Virus record (IMG/VR): IMGVR_UViG_2690316285_000017
DNA: 6,352 nt
Origin: a virus
Taxonomy: Duplodnaviria; Heunggongvirae; Uroviricota; Caudoviricetes
Strand: one strand, 5' to 3'
The notes beneath the pieces are model-generated. The model saw nothing but the letters and a program-made list of their open reading frames with translations, was not told the origin of the DNA and did not search any database. Positions 156 to 6,352 of the stretch are shown in pieces (the stretch's first letter is position 1; each line of letters opens with the position of its first letter). Both the position numbers and the translations under genes were made by a program.

Positions 156-492
156 GTTACTGAATAGTTACATGGATGTAGCTGATATTTGGCTTTTTTG
201 CCAAGGGGGTCACATAGCTGGTGTGACGGGTACTTAGCAGCTACAGACATCTGTCAGATATTTTTGAAGATTCGGGGAAGATGAGATTCAAAGAGGGCTA
301 GTCATTTTTTATAAAAATTTTCAGATTCTGAAAAGTTACTGTACAGATTTTGCACAATCCTACCAAACCTCATAGTTGATTCGATTAGAAGCTAATCTCA
401 TAGAAAGCTCTGTAGCGAGTTTTAACCCCATTTTTAGGGGTAACCTATAGGGATGTACTAACCACCTTAAAATAAAGGGGTAAAATCGCTTA

Positions 493-514
493 GAATGCGT
501 TACAGAGCGTCTGA
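493..514. repeat. Lone copy of the ~26 bp arm motif shared by the two inverted-repeat elements (agaatgcgttacagagcgtctg)
   Basis: Contains cgttacagagcg, a 12/12 match to the 3' arm of element B; its reverse complement cagacgctctgtaacgcattct matches the 5' arm cagacgctctcaatcgcattct at about 18 of 22 positions. Confidence 0.5.
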
Positions 515-847
515 GAAGCCATATTCACAGATTTTACTAAAACCTCAGACTTCTAAGTAGTCTTTTAACAGGAGGGGTTCCCCTATGGTCACATATCCCC
601 TCTCTTTCCACTAAGTAAGCCTTAGCAGCACCTAAGCAACAATTGACTAACAGATTCGGTAGAGTCTATCTCATAGGTCAACTTCATAAACTCAGAGCTA
701 AGTTACCTTGAAAGATTCTACCAAGAACTACACAGGTGTTATTTAGTCTGACTGTGAAGGGATATTTAACGGGAGAAGAGATACGATATAACCCGAAGGG
801 AGAGTATCATCTTAACAATTATCTTAAGAATAAAAACTGAAAAACTC

Positions 848-903
848 TTAACAGATAACCACCTAGAAAGAAGGGTTAACAGATAACCACCTAGAAAGAA
901 GGG
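848..903. repeat. Perfect tandem direct repeat, 2 x 28 bp (ttaacagataaccacctagaaagaaggg)
   Basis: Identical 28-mers at 848-875 and 876-903, head to tail, in a region with no ORF; flanked by further short direct repeats (atcttaa x2, aagtct x2) and the palindrome cctgttaaacagg at about 929-941. Confidence 0.9.
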
Positions 904-1309
904 AACGATAAGACCAGAGGTAGTGACCTGTTAAACAGGCTGTTTCAAAGTCTCTTAAAAGTCTGTTAAGTAAGGTCATGTGAACAATCTTACCATTTTG
1001 TCAATGCTTTTGTCTTTGACCTAAATCAATAAAATGTATCGTTTGATATGCTTTTAAACAAAATAGCTAAAAAATCTTTTTTTAGAGGGGCGCTTCGCTT
1101 GGGGTCACTATGAATGATTTTTCTCTCGCTAAGAGAGCGCTTACAGAGGTCTTTCAAATCTCAATAGCCAGCCGAGGAACACAGGAAACCGAGGGAAGAA
1201 AAACTATTGTGATTACCTTGAACAAGGTCTGTAAAGGTCGTTTAAGAGGTCGGTTAAGAAAGGAGCTTCCCTCTCTGGGGTTATCGCTCTTCTCCCGATT
1301 AGTGGGGCG

Positions 1310-1502
1310 GTTAAGAGGGCTTGAAGTTATCTGTGAAGGTACTGGACAGCCTTATATATTGGGTGATTACAACTCGTTGAAAAATAAGCATTTTTAGAAG
1401 TTACTGTTAAGGTTGCAGAGTTGTCTGTGAAGAGACTTGTCAGTTCTCTATATATAGCTAATTACAACTTATTGAAAAATAAGAACTTTTAGAAATTACT
1501 GT
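1310..1502. repeat. Imperfect tandem direct repeat, 2 x ~96 bp
   Basis: Unit 1 (1310-1407) and unit 2 (1406-1502) align end to end, e.g. gttaagagggcttgaagttatctgtgaagg...attacaactcgttgaaaaataagcatttttagaagttactgt versus gttaaggttgcagagttgtctgtgaagag...attacaacttattgaaaaataagaacttttagaaattactgt. Upstream at 1239-1317 are three short (g)gtcgKttaagaRg motifs. Confidence 0.8.
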
Positions 1503-1584
1503 CAGAGAGGTGAATGCTTGATAGATACGGCTTTCCAGTTCTGTCAAGCTATTTTTTAATAGATAGCACAAAATGCTAAAGACA

Positions 1585-1629
1585 CCCCTGTACCATAGAC
1601 TTCTATCTGTCATCTCGTGCAGGGGTTTT
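1585..1629. terminator. Candidate bidirectional terminator hairpin
   Basis: Stem cccctg (1585-1590) pairs with cagggg (1620-1625), followed by TTTT on the plus strand and lying 15 nt past the stop of the minus-strand ORF. The loop is long (about 29 nt), so this is weak. Confidence 0.3.
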
Positions 1630-1637
1630 GAAGGAGT

Positions 1638-1814
1638 TTAACGGGGGTCTGTGTGGTCGTTATCCTTAAGGTCAAGCGTCCATGTACGACCGAACAGTTT
1701 AAAGACAACAAGCACTCTGACGAGGACGTAGCGAAGTAGCAGGCCTGCAATCAGCCCAATACCTCCACCAGTCCATACATCAGGTGACCCCAGCTCAGGA
1801 GGGAGATTTACCAT
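1638..1814 (-). CDS. Small (58 aa) predicted membrane protein with one hydrophobic helix; an alternative upstream start at 1970 would give 110 aa
   Basis: ATG at 1814-1812 is preceded on the minus strand by cttacaAGGAaaactaATG. The product MVNLPPELGSPDVWTGGGIGLIAGLLLRYVLVRVLVVFKLFGRTWTLDLKDNDHTDPR has a single TM-like segment. The locally GC-richer sequence fits coding DNA. The same frame stays open to an ATG at 1970 that has its own SD (ggggagag) and an extended -10 upstream, but that extension runs through repeat element A. Confidence 0.4.
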   Translation of the reverse strand: MVNLPPELGSPDVWTGGGIGLIAGLLLRYVLVRVLVVFKLFGRTWTLDLKDNDHTDPR

Positions 1815-1828
1815 TAGTTTTCCTTGTA

Positions 1829-1926
1829 AGACGCTCTCAATCGCATTCTGACACAAAAAGTACCTGACCTTATGAGTTGACCTGAAGAGGTCGTTTAACT
1901 CGTTACAGGGCGATTGAAGAGGTCTG
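1829..1926. repeat. Inverted-repeat element A (~98 bp): ~26 bp imperfect-palindromic arms flanking a unique core
   Basis: 5' arm agacgctctcaatcgcattctgac (from 1829) and 3' arm cgttacagggcgattgaagaggtctg (1901-1926). The arms are near reverse complements, and both are near-identical to the arms of element B. Confidence 0.8.
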
Positions 1927-1992
1927 TGTGCAATGCAAAATATGCGACCAAATACATAGCCACGCCTCATATTTTACTCTCCCCATAAACCC

Positions 1993-2021
1993 ATTATACC
2001 ACAGATGTTACAAAAATGTTA
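1993..2021 (-). promoter_or_regulatory. Candidate minus-strand promoter with extended -10 (TGGTATAAT)
   Basis: The minus strand reads ctgTGgTATAATggg (TATAAT = plus 1998 to 1993, TG = plus 2001 to 2000). The -35 region is weak (taacat, plus 2016-2021). Predicted start near plus 1986, directly upstream of the SD/ATG at 1970 and of the leader running towards the ORF at 1814. Confidence 0.45.
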
Positions 2022-2028
2022 AAAATAC

Positions 2029-2058
2029 TTGACATTAGTCTTTGAAAATGCTAATATT
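2029..2058 (+). promoter_or_regulatory. Sigma70-type promoter P1 (TTGACA-N17-TAATAT)
   Basis: TTGACA at 2029-2034, a 17 nt spacer, TAATAT at 2052-2057; about 50 nt upstream of the ATG at 2109. Homologous to P2 over about 65 bp. Confidence 0.6.
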
Positions 2059-2108
2059 GTATATATAGGTTAACAGAATAATAACATCTTATGAGAGTCA
2101 GAACATGA

Positions 2109-2666: not shown

Positions 2667-2945
2667 ATGAATAAACACACATTAACCAGAGTTACAAAGA
2701 CAGCCTTTGATGAACTGAACCGAATCAAAAACATTACAGGTCTGCCACACTCAGCAGTGATGAAGCTTGCAATTAACCGTGATATTAACGAACAGGATTT
2801 GCTTAATAGTCGCTTAGAGGCTGCAAGACACCATATCAGGATTAAGCAAGATGACCTTGATAGTCTGAAATCCTTAAATGCTTTTGGACTGGATTTAGCA
2901 AGGTTACTAAGTATCAAAATTCACAAACTGTCTCAGGAGGTCTGA
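2667..2945 (+). CDS. Putative ribbon-helix-helix (CopG/Arc/MetJ-like) DNA-binding protein, 92 aa
   Basis: SD gagga 7 nt upstream of the ATG. The N-terminus HTLTRVTKTAFDELNRIKNITGLPHSAVMKLAINRDINE fits the RHH pattern: beta-strand, helix A, G-x-P/S turn, helix B. Assignment is from pattern memory, not a search. Confidence 0.6.
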   Translation: MNKHTLTRVTKTAFDELNRIKNITGLPHSAVMKLAINRDINEQDLLNSRLEAARHHIRIKQDDLDSLKSLNAFGLDLARLLSIKIHKLSQEV

Positions 2946-2947
2946 TT

Positions 2948-3220
2948 ATGAAGCAATGGCGAGATGATATTAAACGGTTCTTTGCAACTTACTTCATGAT
3001 TAATTATGAGACAGGAATGCTTGAATGGATTGATGGTGGAGAGGTTAAGACAAGAGATGATGCTTACGGTAATCCAATGATTCGTTATGGCACTCGTGAT
3101 TATTATCTGAAGTATGTCATCTGGTTTTTGCATCATGAAGTTCAGGCAACTAAAAAGATTATCTTCAGGGATGGTAATAAAAGAAATTGCCACCCAAACA
3201 ATTTACTCCTGGAGATTTAA
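2948..3220 (+). CDS. Small protein (90 aa) with a degenerate HNH_3-like motif, probably not catalytic
   Basis: SD aggagg 7 nt upstream. YLKYVIWFLHH...IIFRDGNKRNCHPNNLLL resembles the HNH_3 signature (H.L.W..hG...DHIDGNK.NN..NLR), but FRD replaces the catalytic DH(I)D. Confidence 0.6.
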   Translation: MKQWRDDIKRFFATYFMINYETGMLEWIDGGEVKTRDDAYGNPMIRYGTRDYYLKYVIWFLHHEVQATKKIIFRDGNKRNCHPNNLLLEI

Positions 3221-3420
3221 TGTTATGTATTAAATTCGAATATTTGACAGATAAAATGATTAAGCATGTATCAGACCTGCTCATCAAAGAAGGTGGTTTC
3301 GGTGATGCTTGCAATCCAAAAGATATCTTCATTCATGCCACCAGCCCAAACGCAACACTAAAGACAGCAGTTACAGCGGAATGGTTTGAACGAAATAAAG
3401 CGGAATTAGGTTATTGGTAG
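3220..3420 (+). CDS. Hypothetical small protein (66 aa), translationally coupled to the upstream gene
   Basis: ATG at 3220-3222 overlaps the upstream TAA (3218-3220) as TAATG; SD ggag about 6 nt upstream. The track's longer ORF from 3187 overlaps the preceding gene by 34 nt and has no SD, so the 3220 start is preferred. Confidence 0.55.
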   Translation: MLCIKFEYLTDKMIKHVSDLLIKEGGFGDACNPKDIFIHATSPNATLKTAVTAEWFERNKAELGYW

Positions 3421-3456
3421 TCCGAGACTTTAAGAGAAATTAGAAAAACAGCTTAT

Positions 3457-3576
3457 CAGACGCTCTCAATCGCATTCTAACGCAAAAAACTATCTTATTT
3501 TAGGGTGGGTAATACCACTACAGGCTACCCCTGAAAAAGACTGTTTAGCTCGTTACAGAGCGATTGAGGAGGTCTG
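3457..3576. repeat. Inverted-repeat element B (~120 bp), paralogous to element A
   Basis: 5' arm cagacgctctcaatcgcattctaacgc (from 3457) and 3' arm cgttacagagcgattgaggaggtctg (3551-3576). Intergenic between the gene ending at 3420 and the gene starting at 3597. The arms can form a stem of about 26 bp with about 4 mismatches. Confidence 0.8.
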
Positions 3577-3596
3577 GTAAAAAGGAGATTTTAAAA

Positions 3597-3920
3597 ATGA
3601 ACGAATATGAATTACAGATTTTCATTGATAGCGACACTGCTATGATGGTGCAGGCTTTCGCTGATTCCGGTGTATCAATTGACCTTGATAAATTACTAAA
3701 GCTAATGGCTGAAAACTCAGAAGAAATTGAAGACTTTATTCAGGAAATTGAAACTGGTGAACCGCGTTTTATGTTTCCTGTTACCGACTCAAACATGAAG
3801 CGTCTTATTATCGAAGAAACGAACAAATACAGCGTTAGCCCTGAAAAATATCTCAAGGCGGCTATAGCAATTTTGTATAGCGATAATATTCTGGTGACGG
3901 ATTCGAAGGTGGTGCATTAA
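3597..3920 (+). CDS. Hypothetical acidic protein (107 aa)
   Basis: ATG at 3597 with SD aaggag 9 nt upstream. The track's TTG start at 3564 lies inside the 3' arm of element B and is considered unlikely. Confidence 0.6.
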   Translation: MNEYELQIFIDSDTAMMVQAFADSGVSIDLDKLLKLMAENSEEIEDFIQEIETGEPRFMFPVTDSNMKRLIIEETNKYSVSPEKYLKAAIAILYSDNILVTDSKVVH

Positions 3921-4009: not shown

Positions 4010-4038
4010 TTGACAGACAACCTTGAGCATGACATAAT
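4010..4038 (+). promoter_or_regulatory. Sigma70-type promoter P2 (TTGACA-N17-CATAAT), a paralogue of P1
   Basis: TTGACA at 4010-4015, 17 nt spacer, CATAAT at 4033-4038. The upstream ATGTTAC-N5-TGTTAAAA elements and the downstream TGTATATAT are conserved with P1. Confidence 0.6.
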
Positions 4039-4045
4039 TGTATAT

Positions 4046-4192
4046 ATGGGGGAGAGCAATTCTCTCTTATTTTTTCTTTCAATAATCCGATGGATGGATA
4101 TTCTGAGTTTGAAAGGTGCAATGCTTTTCGTCCTAGCCTTTCAGGTTGGTCTGAGAGGCTATCTCAAAAAGTCTTTGTTCATTCATTATTGA
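4046..4192 (+). CDS. Candidate leaderless small hydrophobic protein (48 aa); alternatively this stretch is the body of a ~190 nt small RNA
   Basis: ATG at 4046-4048 lies 7-8 nt after the P2 -10, where transcription is expected to start (leaderless). Product MGESNSLLFFLSIIRWMDILSLKGAMLFVLAFQVGLRGYLKKSLFIHY. TGA at 4190-4192 is followed 16 nt later by an intrinsic terminator. Confidence 0.3.
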   Translation: MGESNSLLFFLSIIRWMDILSLKGAMLFVLAFQVGLRGYLKKSLFIHY

Positions 4193-5534: not shown

Positions 5535-6335
5535 ATGGCACAATTTAAAGTTGATGATTTTCTGATTGAGTTAAGTTTTAACTCTCAGAAAGTTTTAAAA
5601 GGCTTGGAAAAAGCCGAGAAACAAACGATGCAGGTAGCATCACGAATTGAGAAGCGATTGAATAAGTCGTTTAGAGTTAATCCTACGCCTTTAAATGATT
5701 CTCTCAAACTAATGGAAAGAAATGTCGATAAAACTGTTTCCAAGATTGAGCAGCGTCTTAAAAACACTAGAGCGTTTAAGATTAAAACTGAAATTGAGGA
5801 TACTTTAAAGCCACTTAGACAACCAAGACAGCCACGAATTAGCGGAAGCAGAGCAATCACAGCAGCTTACTCAGCGAATATGAGCAAGCTTCGTGACTTT
5901 AATCCTATGCTTGAGAAGTATTTTAAAAGCCAGTATTACAGCTTAAGCAGTAAATCCAAGACACTTGGAAACGAAACTTTTAATCGTGAGTTAGCAAAGT
6001 TAAATCAGTCTCTTCGTGAAACACTTTCTAAGTTTAACAAGACCACCAGCAAAAATAATCACAGTGAAAATGCTTCAAATAGTCTGGATGTATTAGCTAC
6101 GAGTGCAATCAAAGCAGGTACAGCCATTTATAGTTTTCAGACAGCCTTAGAAGCTTACAGGCGGATTATGGAGGTTGGTCTGAAAAAAGAAGCATCACAA
6201 CGAGCGGCACAATTCGTTTTAGGTGATGAAGGTGCTAAACGAGCTACAGAATTTGTTAAGAATCTTGCTGATAGTAGTGGTGTAGACCAGATTGAAACAT
6301 TAAGCAGTTTTGCTAAGTTTGAAGTGGCACACTGA
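5535..6335 (+). CDS. Hypothetical protein (266 aa), K/S/T/N-rich and probably largely helical
   Basis: SD aagaggtg 9 nt upstream of the ATG; a long ORF that ends with TGA inside the window; no family recognised from sequence. Confidence 0.6.
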   Translation: MAQFKVDDFLIELSFNSQKVLKGLEKAEKQTMQVASRIEKRLNKSFRVNPTPLNDSLKLMERNVDKTVSKIEQRLKNTRAFKIKTEIEDTLKPLRQPRQPRISGSRAITAAYSANMSKLRDFNPMLEKYFKSQYYSLSSKSKTLGNETFNRELAKLNQSLRETLSKFNKTTSKNNHSENASNSLDVLATSAIKAGTAIYSFQTALEAYRRIMEVGLKKEASQRAAQFVLGDEGAKRATEFVKNLADSSGVDQIETLSSFAKFEVAH

Positions 6336-6352
6336 ATTTGGCCACCTGAACA

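Follow-up and report, generated by a model that had tools for sequence, protein, structure and literature searches.

The cos site of P4 matches the cos site of P2, and the SaPIs and PICIs carry cos or pac sites. To our knowledge, the satellites known to copy the packaging site of their helper all use helpers of the cos or pac type. In phages of the T7/T3 type the boundary of the direct terminal repeat (DTR) is the expected place of the signals for terminase recognition and cutting. Direct repeats in mobile elements are often read differently, as iterons. Iterons are typically 17-22 bp long, come in at least three copies, are conserved across relatives and lie beside a rep gene. The Vibrio cholerae satellite PLE has iterons in a non-coding region comparable to the one considered here, and we counted this in favor of an iteron reading. 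Serine recombinases, as far as we know, do not use arm-type sites. These are the systems against which the present locus has to be judged.

The window (the whole 6,352-nt stretch of DNA that was analysed) contains two adjacent 28-mers, each of which reads TTAACAGATAACCACCTAGAAAGAAGGG. The initial annotation described them as identical and head-to-tail, and it was right: direct reading of the letters, Tandem Repeats Finder (period 28, 2.0 copies, 100% matches, score 112) and an independent search for repeats, in which the pair is family D10, all agree. By our own arithmetic the chance of an adjacent exact 28-mer in 6.3 kb is 6352 x 4^-28, or about 1e-13, so the pair is not a chance event. The identity ends sharply on both sides (C847 vs G875, and A904 vs T876). 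There are therefore exactly 2.0 copies with a blunt junction that has no microhomology. Which copy is the newer one cannot be told; it could be either. Written as a degenerate pattern the unit is TTAACAGA-N(0-6)-ACYACCWAGAARGARGGG. The only other copies within the window are weak 80% partial matches (families D6 and D8). As a reiterated site GGTAGTGACC is no more frequent than chance predicts. A DnaA box in GATAACCACC fits at 6 of 9 positions by eye and was dropped as too weak.

The repeat was also said to be non-coding. This holds for the repeat itself, as no ORF of at least 40 aa overlaps 848-903 and no conserved ORF runs over it. Two ORFs of 34-38 aa touch the area. The 38-aa one is on the minus strand and is not conserved, since relatives carry 1-nt and other non-triplet indels there that would break it. 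The statement does not hold for the wider region, because 13/13 relatives, the divergent Citrobacter island included, have an intact 57-aa ORF at minus-strand positions 1638-1811. This implies that the "2-kb non-coding region" holds at least one real small gene. Its product (MVNLPPELGSPDVW.GGGIGLIAGLLLRY...) has a hydrophobic segment of membrane type, and it is a RefSeq hypothetical protein in some genomes. A 95-aa ORF on the plus strand (1110-1397) was rejected as a gene, as stops interrupt it in relatives. The DNA of this stretch is well conserved and non-coding, lies downstream of the nearly invariant block listed in Table 1 and contains short GGTCGTTTAAG-like repeats (family D1).

The copy number in relatives decides what the tandem is. 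We aligned 13 islands from E. coli, E. albertii and three IMG/VR contigs. Every one has a single copy of the unit, and so do L001 and L002, which were also checked on their own. The closest relative is L018 from E. coli JML285 (NZ_AP024114). It contains a single identical 28-mer, the flanks of which differ by about 2 substitutions in about 280 nt. Full-length E. coli matches to window 600-1110 all fall about 30 nt short of the query length. Among 60 genomes sampled across the 339 matching E. coli genomes the match either spans 137-141 nt for a query of 169-171 nt or starts at the second copy. Where it starts late, the start is the first base of that copy.

The 48-mer across the junction is absent from 5,426 complete E. 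coli genomes in an exact search, which is blind to duplicated variant units. The junction pattern gave 22 chance matches in IMG/VR and the JGI metagenomes, and beyond the pattern itself these have nothing in common with the window. In near-identity searches of phage and plasmid collections the sole match was to the last ~35 nt of the window, the IS911-type end. Relatives of the region number in the hundreds in complete E. coli genomes, are 85-91% identical and are all chromosomal (359 places in the search related to the sample and 456 in the search with 600-1110). Another search lists 18 plasmid places too, and these are probably matches to the IS911 end. Since every relative examined has one copy and the junction was found nowhere else, the tandem state is private to the window sequence and recent. 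It is a recent duplication in the lineage of the window, and there is no conserved repeat array.

The initial annotation explained the perfect identity by recent duplication or strong selection. Recent duplication is borne out by the lone identical 28-mer of L018 and the single copies elsewhere, while the functional reading is unsupported. Its suggestion was that the pair could bind a Rep initiator, an integrase arm domain or a partition protein, and it proposed checking the copy number of the 28-mer. With one copy in the 13 islands and in the 60 sampled genomes that check speaks against the tandem as an array. A single copy is the family norm, so there is no array, and a tandem pair is not a required feature. 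The ORFs of the window have no match to a Rep initiator, ParA/ParB or tyrosine integrase family in Pfam, PHROGs or NCBIfam, and ORFs of unknown function remain. Since none of these proteins was found, iterons, arm sites and partition sites are all left without support. The recombinases of the island are serine recombinases, which further counts against arm sites. What survives is the weaker idea of a protein-binding cis element that is not an array. The unit has a TTAACAG motif, includes one arm of a conserved inverted repeat and overlaps DTR-like sequence.

Table 1. Features of the window around the 28-mer tandem and at the ends of the island fragment
Feature	Position	Strand	Basis or remark
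Small serine recombinase gene, 3' end, with C-terminal helix-turn-helix	1-155	+	"Recombinase family protein" in relatives
Segment spanning the right boundary of the phage DTR	141-358	+	Local and collection searches, multiple alignment
Small conserved hairpin, GATAC..CCC-GAA-GGG..GTATC	783-811		Alignment; ~40 nt upstream of the repeat
Short TTAACA/TTAAGA tandem, period 12	809-831		Resembles a phage run
28-mer, copy 1	848-875		Extra copy; 28 nt missing here in all relatives
28-mer, copy 2	876-903		Continuous with the rest of the conserved palindrome and the phage-homologous block
Composite imperfect inverted repeat, ~60 bp	876-934		RNAalifold consensus of 13 islands
Block B, homologous to the mid-DTR of Felixounavirus/Suspvirus	881-950	+	Ro111lw 270-313; CHB7; SP22
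Nearly invariant block right of the palindrome	975-1040	+	98-100% identical in 11/13 relatives
Tape-measure gene, 5' part	5535-6318	+	PHROG 4036, E = 3e-16
IS911-type terminal inverted repeat	6319-6352		Collection matches; homology to intact islands ends at 6320

The 28-mer is exactly the left half of a composite palindrome (Table 1). The palindrome runs TTAACAG-ATA-ACCACCT, a purine-rich spacer of 25 nt, and AGGTAGT-GAC-CTGTTAA. The unit takes in the outer arm, ATA, the inner arm and 11 nt of the spacer. After the duplication the element itself is therefore intact, and an additional left half-site lies 28 bp upstream of it. In a consensus fold built from the 13 islands TTAACAG pairs with CTGTTAA and ACYACCT pairs with AGGTRGT, with a spacer of about 25 nt between them. 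The pairing is present in 93% of cells across these islands, vs 25-48% when the partners are slid by 1-3 columns. The covariation is thin, with only 3 compensated cells, 2 of which are in the poorly aligned L008. The third is in L018 (ACCACCT/AGGTGGT), and the window is intermediate (ACCACCT/AGGTAGT). The inner stem of the window version has a C/A mismatch, which would become a G-U pair if the minus strand were read. The element could be either a protein-binding palindrome in duplex DNA or a hairpin. Single-strand folding of the repeat region in the window sequence is unremarkable (z -1.5 to -2.75), and for this reason it does not tell the two apart.

The two halves of the palindrome have evolved differently. 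Islands hardly differ in the right half and in the ~100 nt that follow it, while the left half is variable. On the left side the outer and inner arms are 0, 3 or 6 nt apart, depending on the member of the family. L002 has an extra ACT (an ACT repeat) inside the unit, and L005 and L022 have 5 nt of the spacer deleted, again inside the unit. The left half is an indel hotspot in this family, and the duplication is one more length change there.

Another line of evidence comes from phage genomes. A sensitive DNA search was made with window 156-2108 against 50,697 phage records (a 2.3-Gb collection). The non-coding region matches 142 records, 139 of which are Ounavirinae, or Felix O1-type phages. 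Matches were placed relative to the DTR on phage vB_EcoM-Ro111lw, whose record has an exact 613-bp repeat at both ends. This repeat was predicted as the DTR by PhageTerm (PMC6454146). A DTR of 608 bp was determined experimentally for UAB_Phi87 (PMC4837284). Block B overlaps the palindrome, so that the spacer and right half are homologous to a mid-DTR segment. It extends over 71 nt at 79% identity with Suspvirus CHB7 and Felixounavirus SP22, and its E-value is about 1e-10 in a local comparison and 2e-6 against the 2.3-Gb collection. The phage counterpart has its own version of the palindrome at the same place (TCACTA ... TAGTGA).

A second segment of the window spans the right boundary of the phage DTR. 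The phage boundary sequence is ...GGGCTACC|AAGCAG..., and the island equivalent is GGGTACTTAGCAG at 228-240, with the position equivalent to the boundary at ~234/235. Block A (299-346) is the right part of this segment. In several islands the right-boundary homology covers 150-215 nt, with local E-values down to 3e-16. The multiple alignment has shared sub-motifs amid diverged sequence (GATATTT, TTTGCAAAGG, GGGYTACYWAGCAG, CAGATATTTTTGA and TTTTATAAAAATTTT), and the phage DTR boundary falls inside GGGYTACYWAGCAG. These sub-motifs look like footprints, and the segment is potentially the most informative feature of the window on the interaction between island and phage.

Some islands have a perfect or near-perfect match of 27-30 nt to another piece of the phage terminal region. 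The matching sequence (AATTGGTATTGTTACCAATCCC...) is itself a small palindrome. It is found at ~1250-1281 (L005) and ~1205-1233 (L019) of the 2-kb stretch upstream of the first ORF. Its location varies by phage, being at DTR 360-386 in Ro111lw and left of the DTR in CHB7. It may be a small mobile or exchanged element.

The view that the island simply copies a phage end is weakened on three counts. It has two pieces of the terminal region of the putative helper, the right DTR boundary and the mid-DTR block, and their order is permuted. The boundary segment is ~590 nt before block B in the island, and in the phage the mid-DTR block is ~400 nt before the right boundary. A homolog of the left DTR boundary was looked for in four islands that are complete or nearly so, and none turned up at E < 1e-3, which speaks against a plain copy of the concatemer junction. 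The phage terminal region has 17-18 copies of the CTTGTTA/TGTTAAG motifs in 1.2 kb vs ~1 expected. This dense array is not reproduced in the island, where enrichment is weak (in the whole window, TGTTAAG 6 vs 1.4 expected and TGTTAA 13 vs 6.6 expected). The TGTTAA-type motifs of the island cluster at 812-969, and their orientation switches around the palindrome. We compared seven phage terminal regions as well, but conservation is ~90% over the whole region, so the profile is uninformative on the shared blocks.

The window belongs to an island of ~11 kb that in relatives sits at yciI/tonB, at ymdF/wrbA or inside a DUF72 gene. From left to right the island has a small serine recombinase, ~2 kb without annotated genes, small ORFs, a second gap and ORFs of 236 and 69 aa. 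These are followed by the tape-measure gene, a "baseplate" gene and a large serine recombinase at the end. The small ORFs are 185, 92, 90 (HNH), 66 (77 from a TTG start) and 107 (118 from a TTG start) aa long in the window. The 28-mer repeat is ~9-10 kb from the large recombinase gene. Some match to the island occurs in 744 of the 5,426 complete E. coli genomes, a count that includes IS911-only matches, and 339-422 of the genomes match its non-coding region.

When the ORFs of the window were compared with Pfam, PHROGs and NCBIfam, nothing but the HNH domain, the tape measure and the recombinase was recognised. The L002 homolog of the small recombinase matches serine recombinase / Mpi invertase in NCBIfam. 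Its gene is on the opposite strand in L002 and L022 relative to L001, L008 and the window, and in L018 a different gene takes its place. This implies that the left end of the island is modular or invertible. The 92-aa ORF comes directly before the 90-aa HNH endonuclease ORF (2667-3220), a pairing that recalls HNH-terminase packaging modules. The 92-aa ORF has weak matches to the small terminase family P27 (E = 0.027) and to DndE (E ~0.03), and the former is the sole sign of a packaging protein in the island. We do not call it a small terminase, as there is nothing beyond matches at E ~0.03, no PDB sequence matches it and the AlphaFold model is too poor (pLDDT 48.6).

The full-length homolog of the tape measure is 28-34% identical to Felixounavirus tape measure proteins, which marks the island as phage-tail related. 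The protein after it in relatives is ~70% identical to Suspvirus/Felixounavirus proteins. In the window the IS911 end cuts the tape-measure gene at 6319, so this copy of the island is disrupted, which hints at an IS-rich source genome of Shigella type. The island of E. coli A0 34/86 (NZ_CP120567), like that of JML285, is intact. The G+C content of the island is ~35-45%, and it is 0.345-0.35 at the repeat. Felix O1 has a similar G+C content of 39% (PMC3185647). This is a small island with its own recombinase and several chromosomal sites. It has specific sequence links to a helper phage in its tail proteins and in its homology to the terminal region. These are two of the properties by which we would recognise a satellite, and helper-dependent induction, packaging and transfer would be the third. 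Eight times ~11 kb is close to the phage genome size, which we treat as numerology, the ends of the island being unmapped.

Several other features of the non-coding DNA deserve mention. The hairpin upstream of the repeat is found with three different, compensated outer stems across the family (GATAC/GTATC, GAACC/GGTTC and GTAAC/GTTAC). They fold to one topology with modest energies and a C-GAA-G center. The short tandem next to it is similar to three TTAACA motifs (period 11) found where the phage DTR has its left end. The two exceptions to the conservation of the nearly invariant block are L019, at 95%, and L021, which matches over the first 42 nt alone. This block has a promoter-like TTGTCA-17-CTAAAT (~993-1021) that was read by eye and was not listed by the consensus promoter scan. 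Scanning for promoters and terminators gave nothing convincing at the repeat. Strong sigma-70-like promoters occur at 2029-2075 (TTGACA-17-TAATAT) and 4010-4050 (TTGACA-17-CATAAT), and ATTGTATATATRGG follows both. Upstream of the one at 2029 are two TGTTA(A/C) motifs 11 nt apart that resemble the TTAACA x3 of the left DTR end.

There is also a direct repeat of ~83 nt (1325-1407 and 1419-1502) at 74-88% identity, with a start-to-start spacing of 94-95 nt. Its internal TCTCTATATATAGCTA motif is present in the phage terminal region too. A long imperfect palindrome module of 125-160 nt occurs three times in the island, at 3414-3576 (+), 1823-1926 (+) and 407-556 (inverted). The copy at 3440-3580 has an RNA fold of -48.3 kcal/mol (z = -5.8), and the other two are weaker (z -2.6 and -2.3). 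Copy C of this module is directly upstream of the ORF at 3597, and the module has no Rfam match. Rfam covariance models gave no match anywhere in the window at E <= 1, and the window contains no tRNAs.

One can imagine several scenarios for the tandem and the palindrome. If the two 28-mers were iterons of a replication origin, a Rep initiator would bind them and the adjacent DNA would melt. Their position in a long non-coding region of a mobile element fits, as does the low GC, but a single copy in all relatives, the lack of further copies in the window beyond weak partial matches and the lack of a Rep-like protein in Pfam, PHROGs and NCBIfam make this very improbable. An assembly or sequencing artefact is the least probable explanation of all. 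The two-copy state is unique to the window sequence, as an artefact would be. However, an exact tandem of 56 nt fits inside a single read on all current platforms, and units of 28 nt are not homopolymer-type errors. If the element acted as a hairpin, within a structured RNA once transcribed or in single-stranded DNA that replication or packaging exposes, the duplication would change the fold. The conserved inverted repeat, the compensated stems of the adjacent hairpin and the mismatch that becomes a G-U pair on the minus strand all suit this idea. We still think it improbable, as Rfam has no match, the folding z-scores are weak, a 25-nt loop makes the hairpin marginal and the promoter scan has no promoter that would read through it.

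The main alternative for the palindrome is a transcriptional operator or activator site. TTAACAG/CTGTTAA would be half-sites for a phage or island regulator acting on 975-1040 or on other promoters, and the duplication would add a half-site. In its favor are the cluster of TGTTAA-type motifs with its orientation switch, the two more motifs just upstream of the strong promoter-like site at 2029, the strong over-representation of the same motif family in the phage terminal region and a nearly invariant block 40 nt downstream of the palindrome. Against it, no regulator was identified, the enrichment of the motif within the island is weak and a left-arm spacing that varies between 0, 3 and 6 nt is not what a rigid dimer site would lead one to expect. 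We regard this as unlikely, and slightly less so than relic homology. In the latter scenario an Ounavirinae genome was the ancestor of the island or recombined with it, the DTR-like pieces and the palindrome are decaying remnants and the duplication is a neutral lesion. The permuted pieces, the left boundary that was not found, the many indels of the region and the IS911 disruption of this island copy are what decay would produce. Decay does not explain why sub-motifs are kept, footprint-like, between phages and divergent islands amid diverged sequence, or why lineages that are 60-85% identical elsewhere show such high conservation in block B and in the right half of the palindrome. The 27-30-nt phage match in some islands also implies recent exchange.

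We argue that the tandem is probably a neutral and recent duplication of a half-site. The half-site would belong to a cis element derived from a helper phage and probably related to packaging, and the island copy was already disrupted by IS911. The island would resemble a satellite and depend on a helper phage of the Ounavirinae, and the palindrome would be a cis-acting site read by DNA-handling proteins of the helper or of the island. Its most likely role would be in terminase end recognition and packaging, which we favor because DTR boundaries serve end processing and packaging in T7/T3-type phages. A transcriptional site that responds to the phage would come second. The duplication presumably arose in the segment that is the indel hotspot of the family, in a disrupted copy. 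It would leave one complete palindrome and a spare left half-site 28 bp upstream of it, and is most likely neutral. The fact that the island copy was already broken by IS911 helps the case for neutrality. It is possible that the extra half-site has a functional effect.

A bolder scenario is that undescribed satellites of E. coli, Citrobacter and Salmonella parasitise the Ounavirinae through DTR signals, 876-934 being one of them, and that the blunt duplication is a scar of nicking and fill-in, not of slippage. The end-processing machinery would make staggered nicks that are then filled in, the same chemistry that duplicates terminal repeats. We consider this doubtful. In a search of the literature we found no packaging signal mapped in any Felixounavirus, and no satellite described for the Felix O1-type phages or the Ounavirinae.

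At the very least, the 28-mer repeat should be considered an ordinary private mutation, and annotating it as iterons, an operator array or a partition site is unwarranted. Its context is more notable, as serine recombinases, Felix O1-type tail genes and non-coding DNA that resembles phage ends are combined in one island. We hold with moderate confidence that the island is of a known kind, a satellite-like element with cis DNA that mimics its helper. Felixounaviruses are widely used for typing Salmonella and E. coli and in phage therapy. Should the island prove to be their satellite, it could influence the host range and efficacy of these virulent phages, and it would point to the still unmapped packaging signals of Felix O1-type phages.

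It remains to compare the locus with the known systems. Like the iterons of plasmids and phages (the RepA/RepE sites of P1 and F), the 28-mers are direct repeats in the non-coding DNA of a mobile element. However, there are two copies in one sequence and one everywhere else, and a rep gene was not found. There is also a likeness to PLE, the satellite of ICP1 in V. cholerae. Both have a large serine recombinase at one end, a long non-coding region, a low G+C content that matches a lytic myovirus and mostly orphan small ORFs. They differ in that neither the proteins nor the DNA of the island show detectable homology to PLE components, and in that the island lacks a RepA_N initiator and an iteron array. 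It also has tape-measure and baseplate genes, and we know of no PLE that carries these.

P4, the SaPIs and the PICIs are similar in another respect. The island, like them, is small and integrative and has little capacity for structural genes. Its non-coding DNA is homologous to the end-forming region of one phage group, just as their cos or pac sites are to those of their helpers, and it has related tail genes besides. The putative helper is different, a virulent myovirus with short exact direct terminal repeats in place of cos ends or headful packaging. The island also carries two pieces of the terminal region that are permuted, with the left boundary not found. The likeness to the concatemer-junction signals of T7/T3 is one of position, as the phage DNA with the homology is found in the interior and on the right border of an exact DTR of 0.6 kb. 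By analogy, we infer that processing signals of the T7/T3 type may exist both in the DTR of Felix O1-type phages and in the island.
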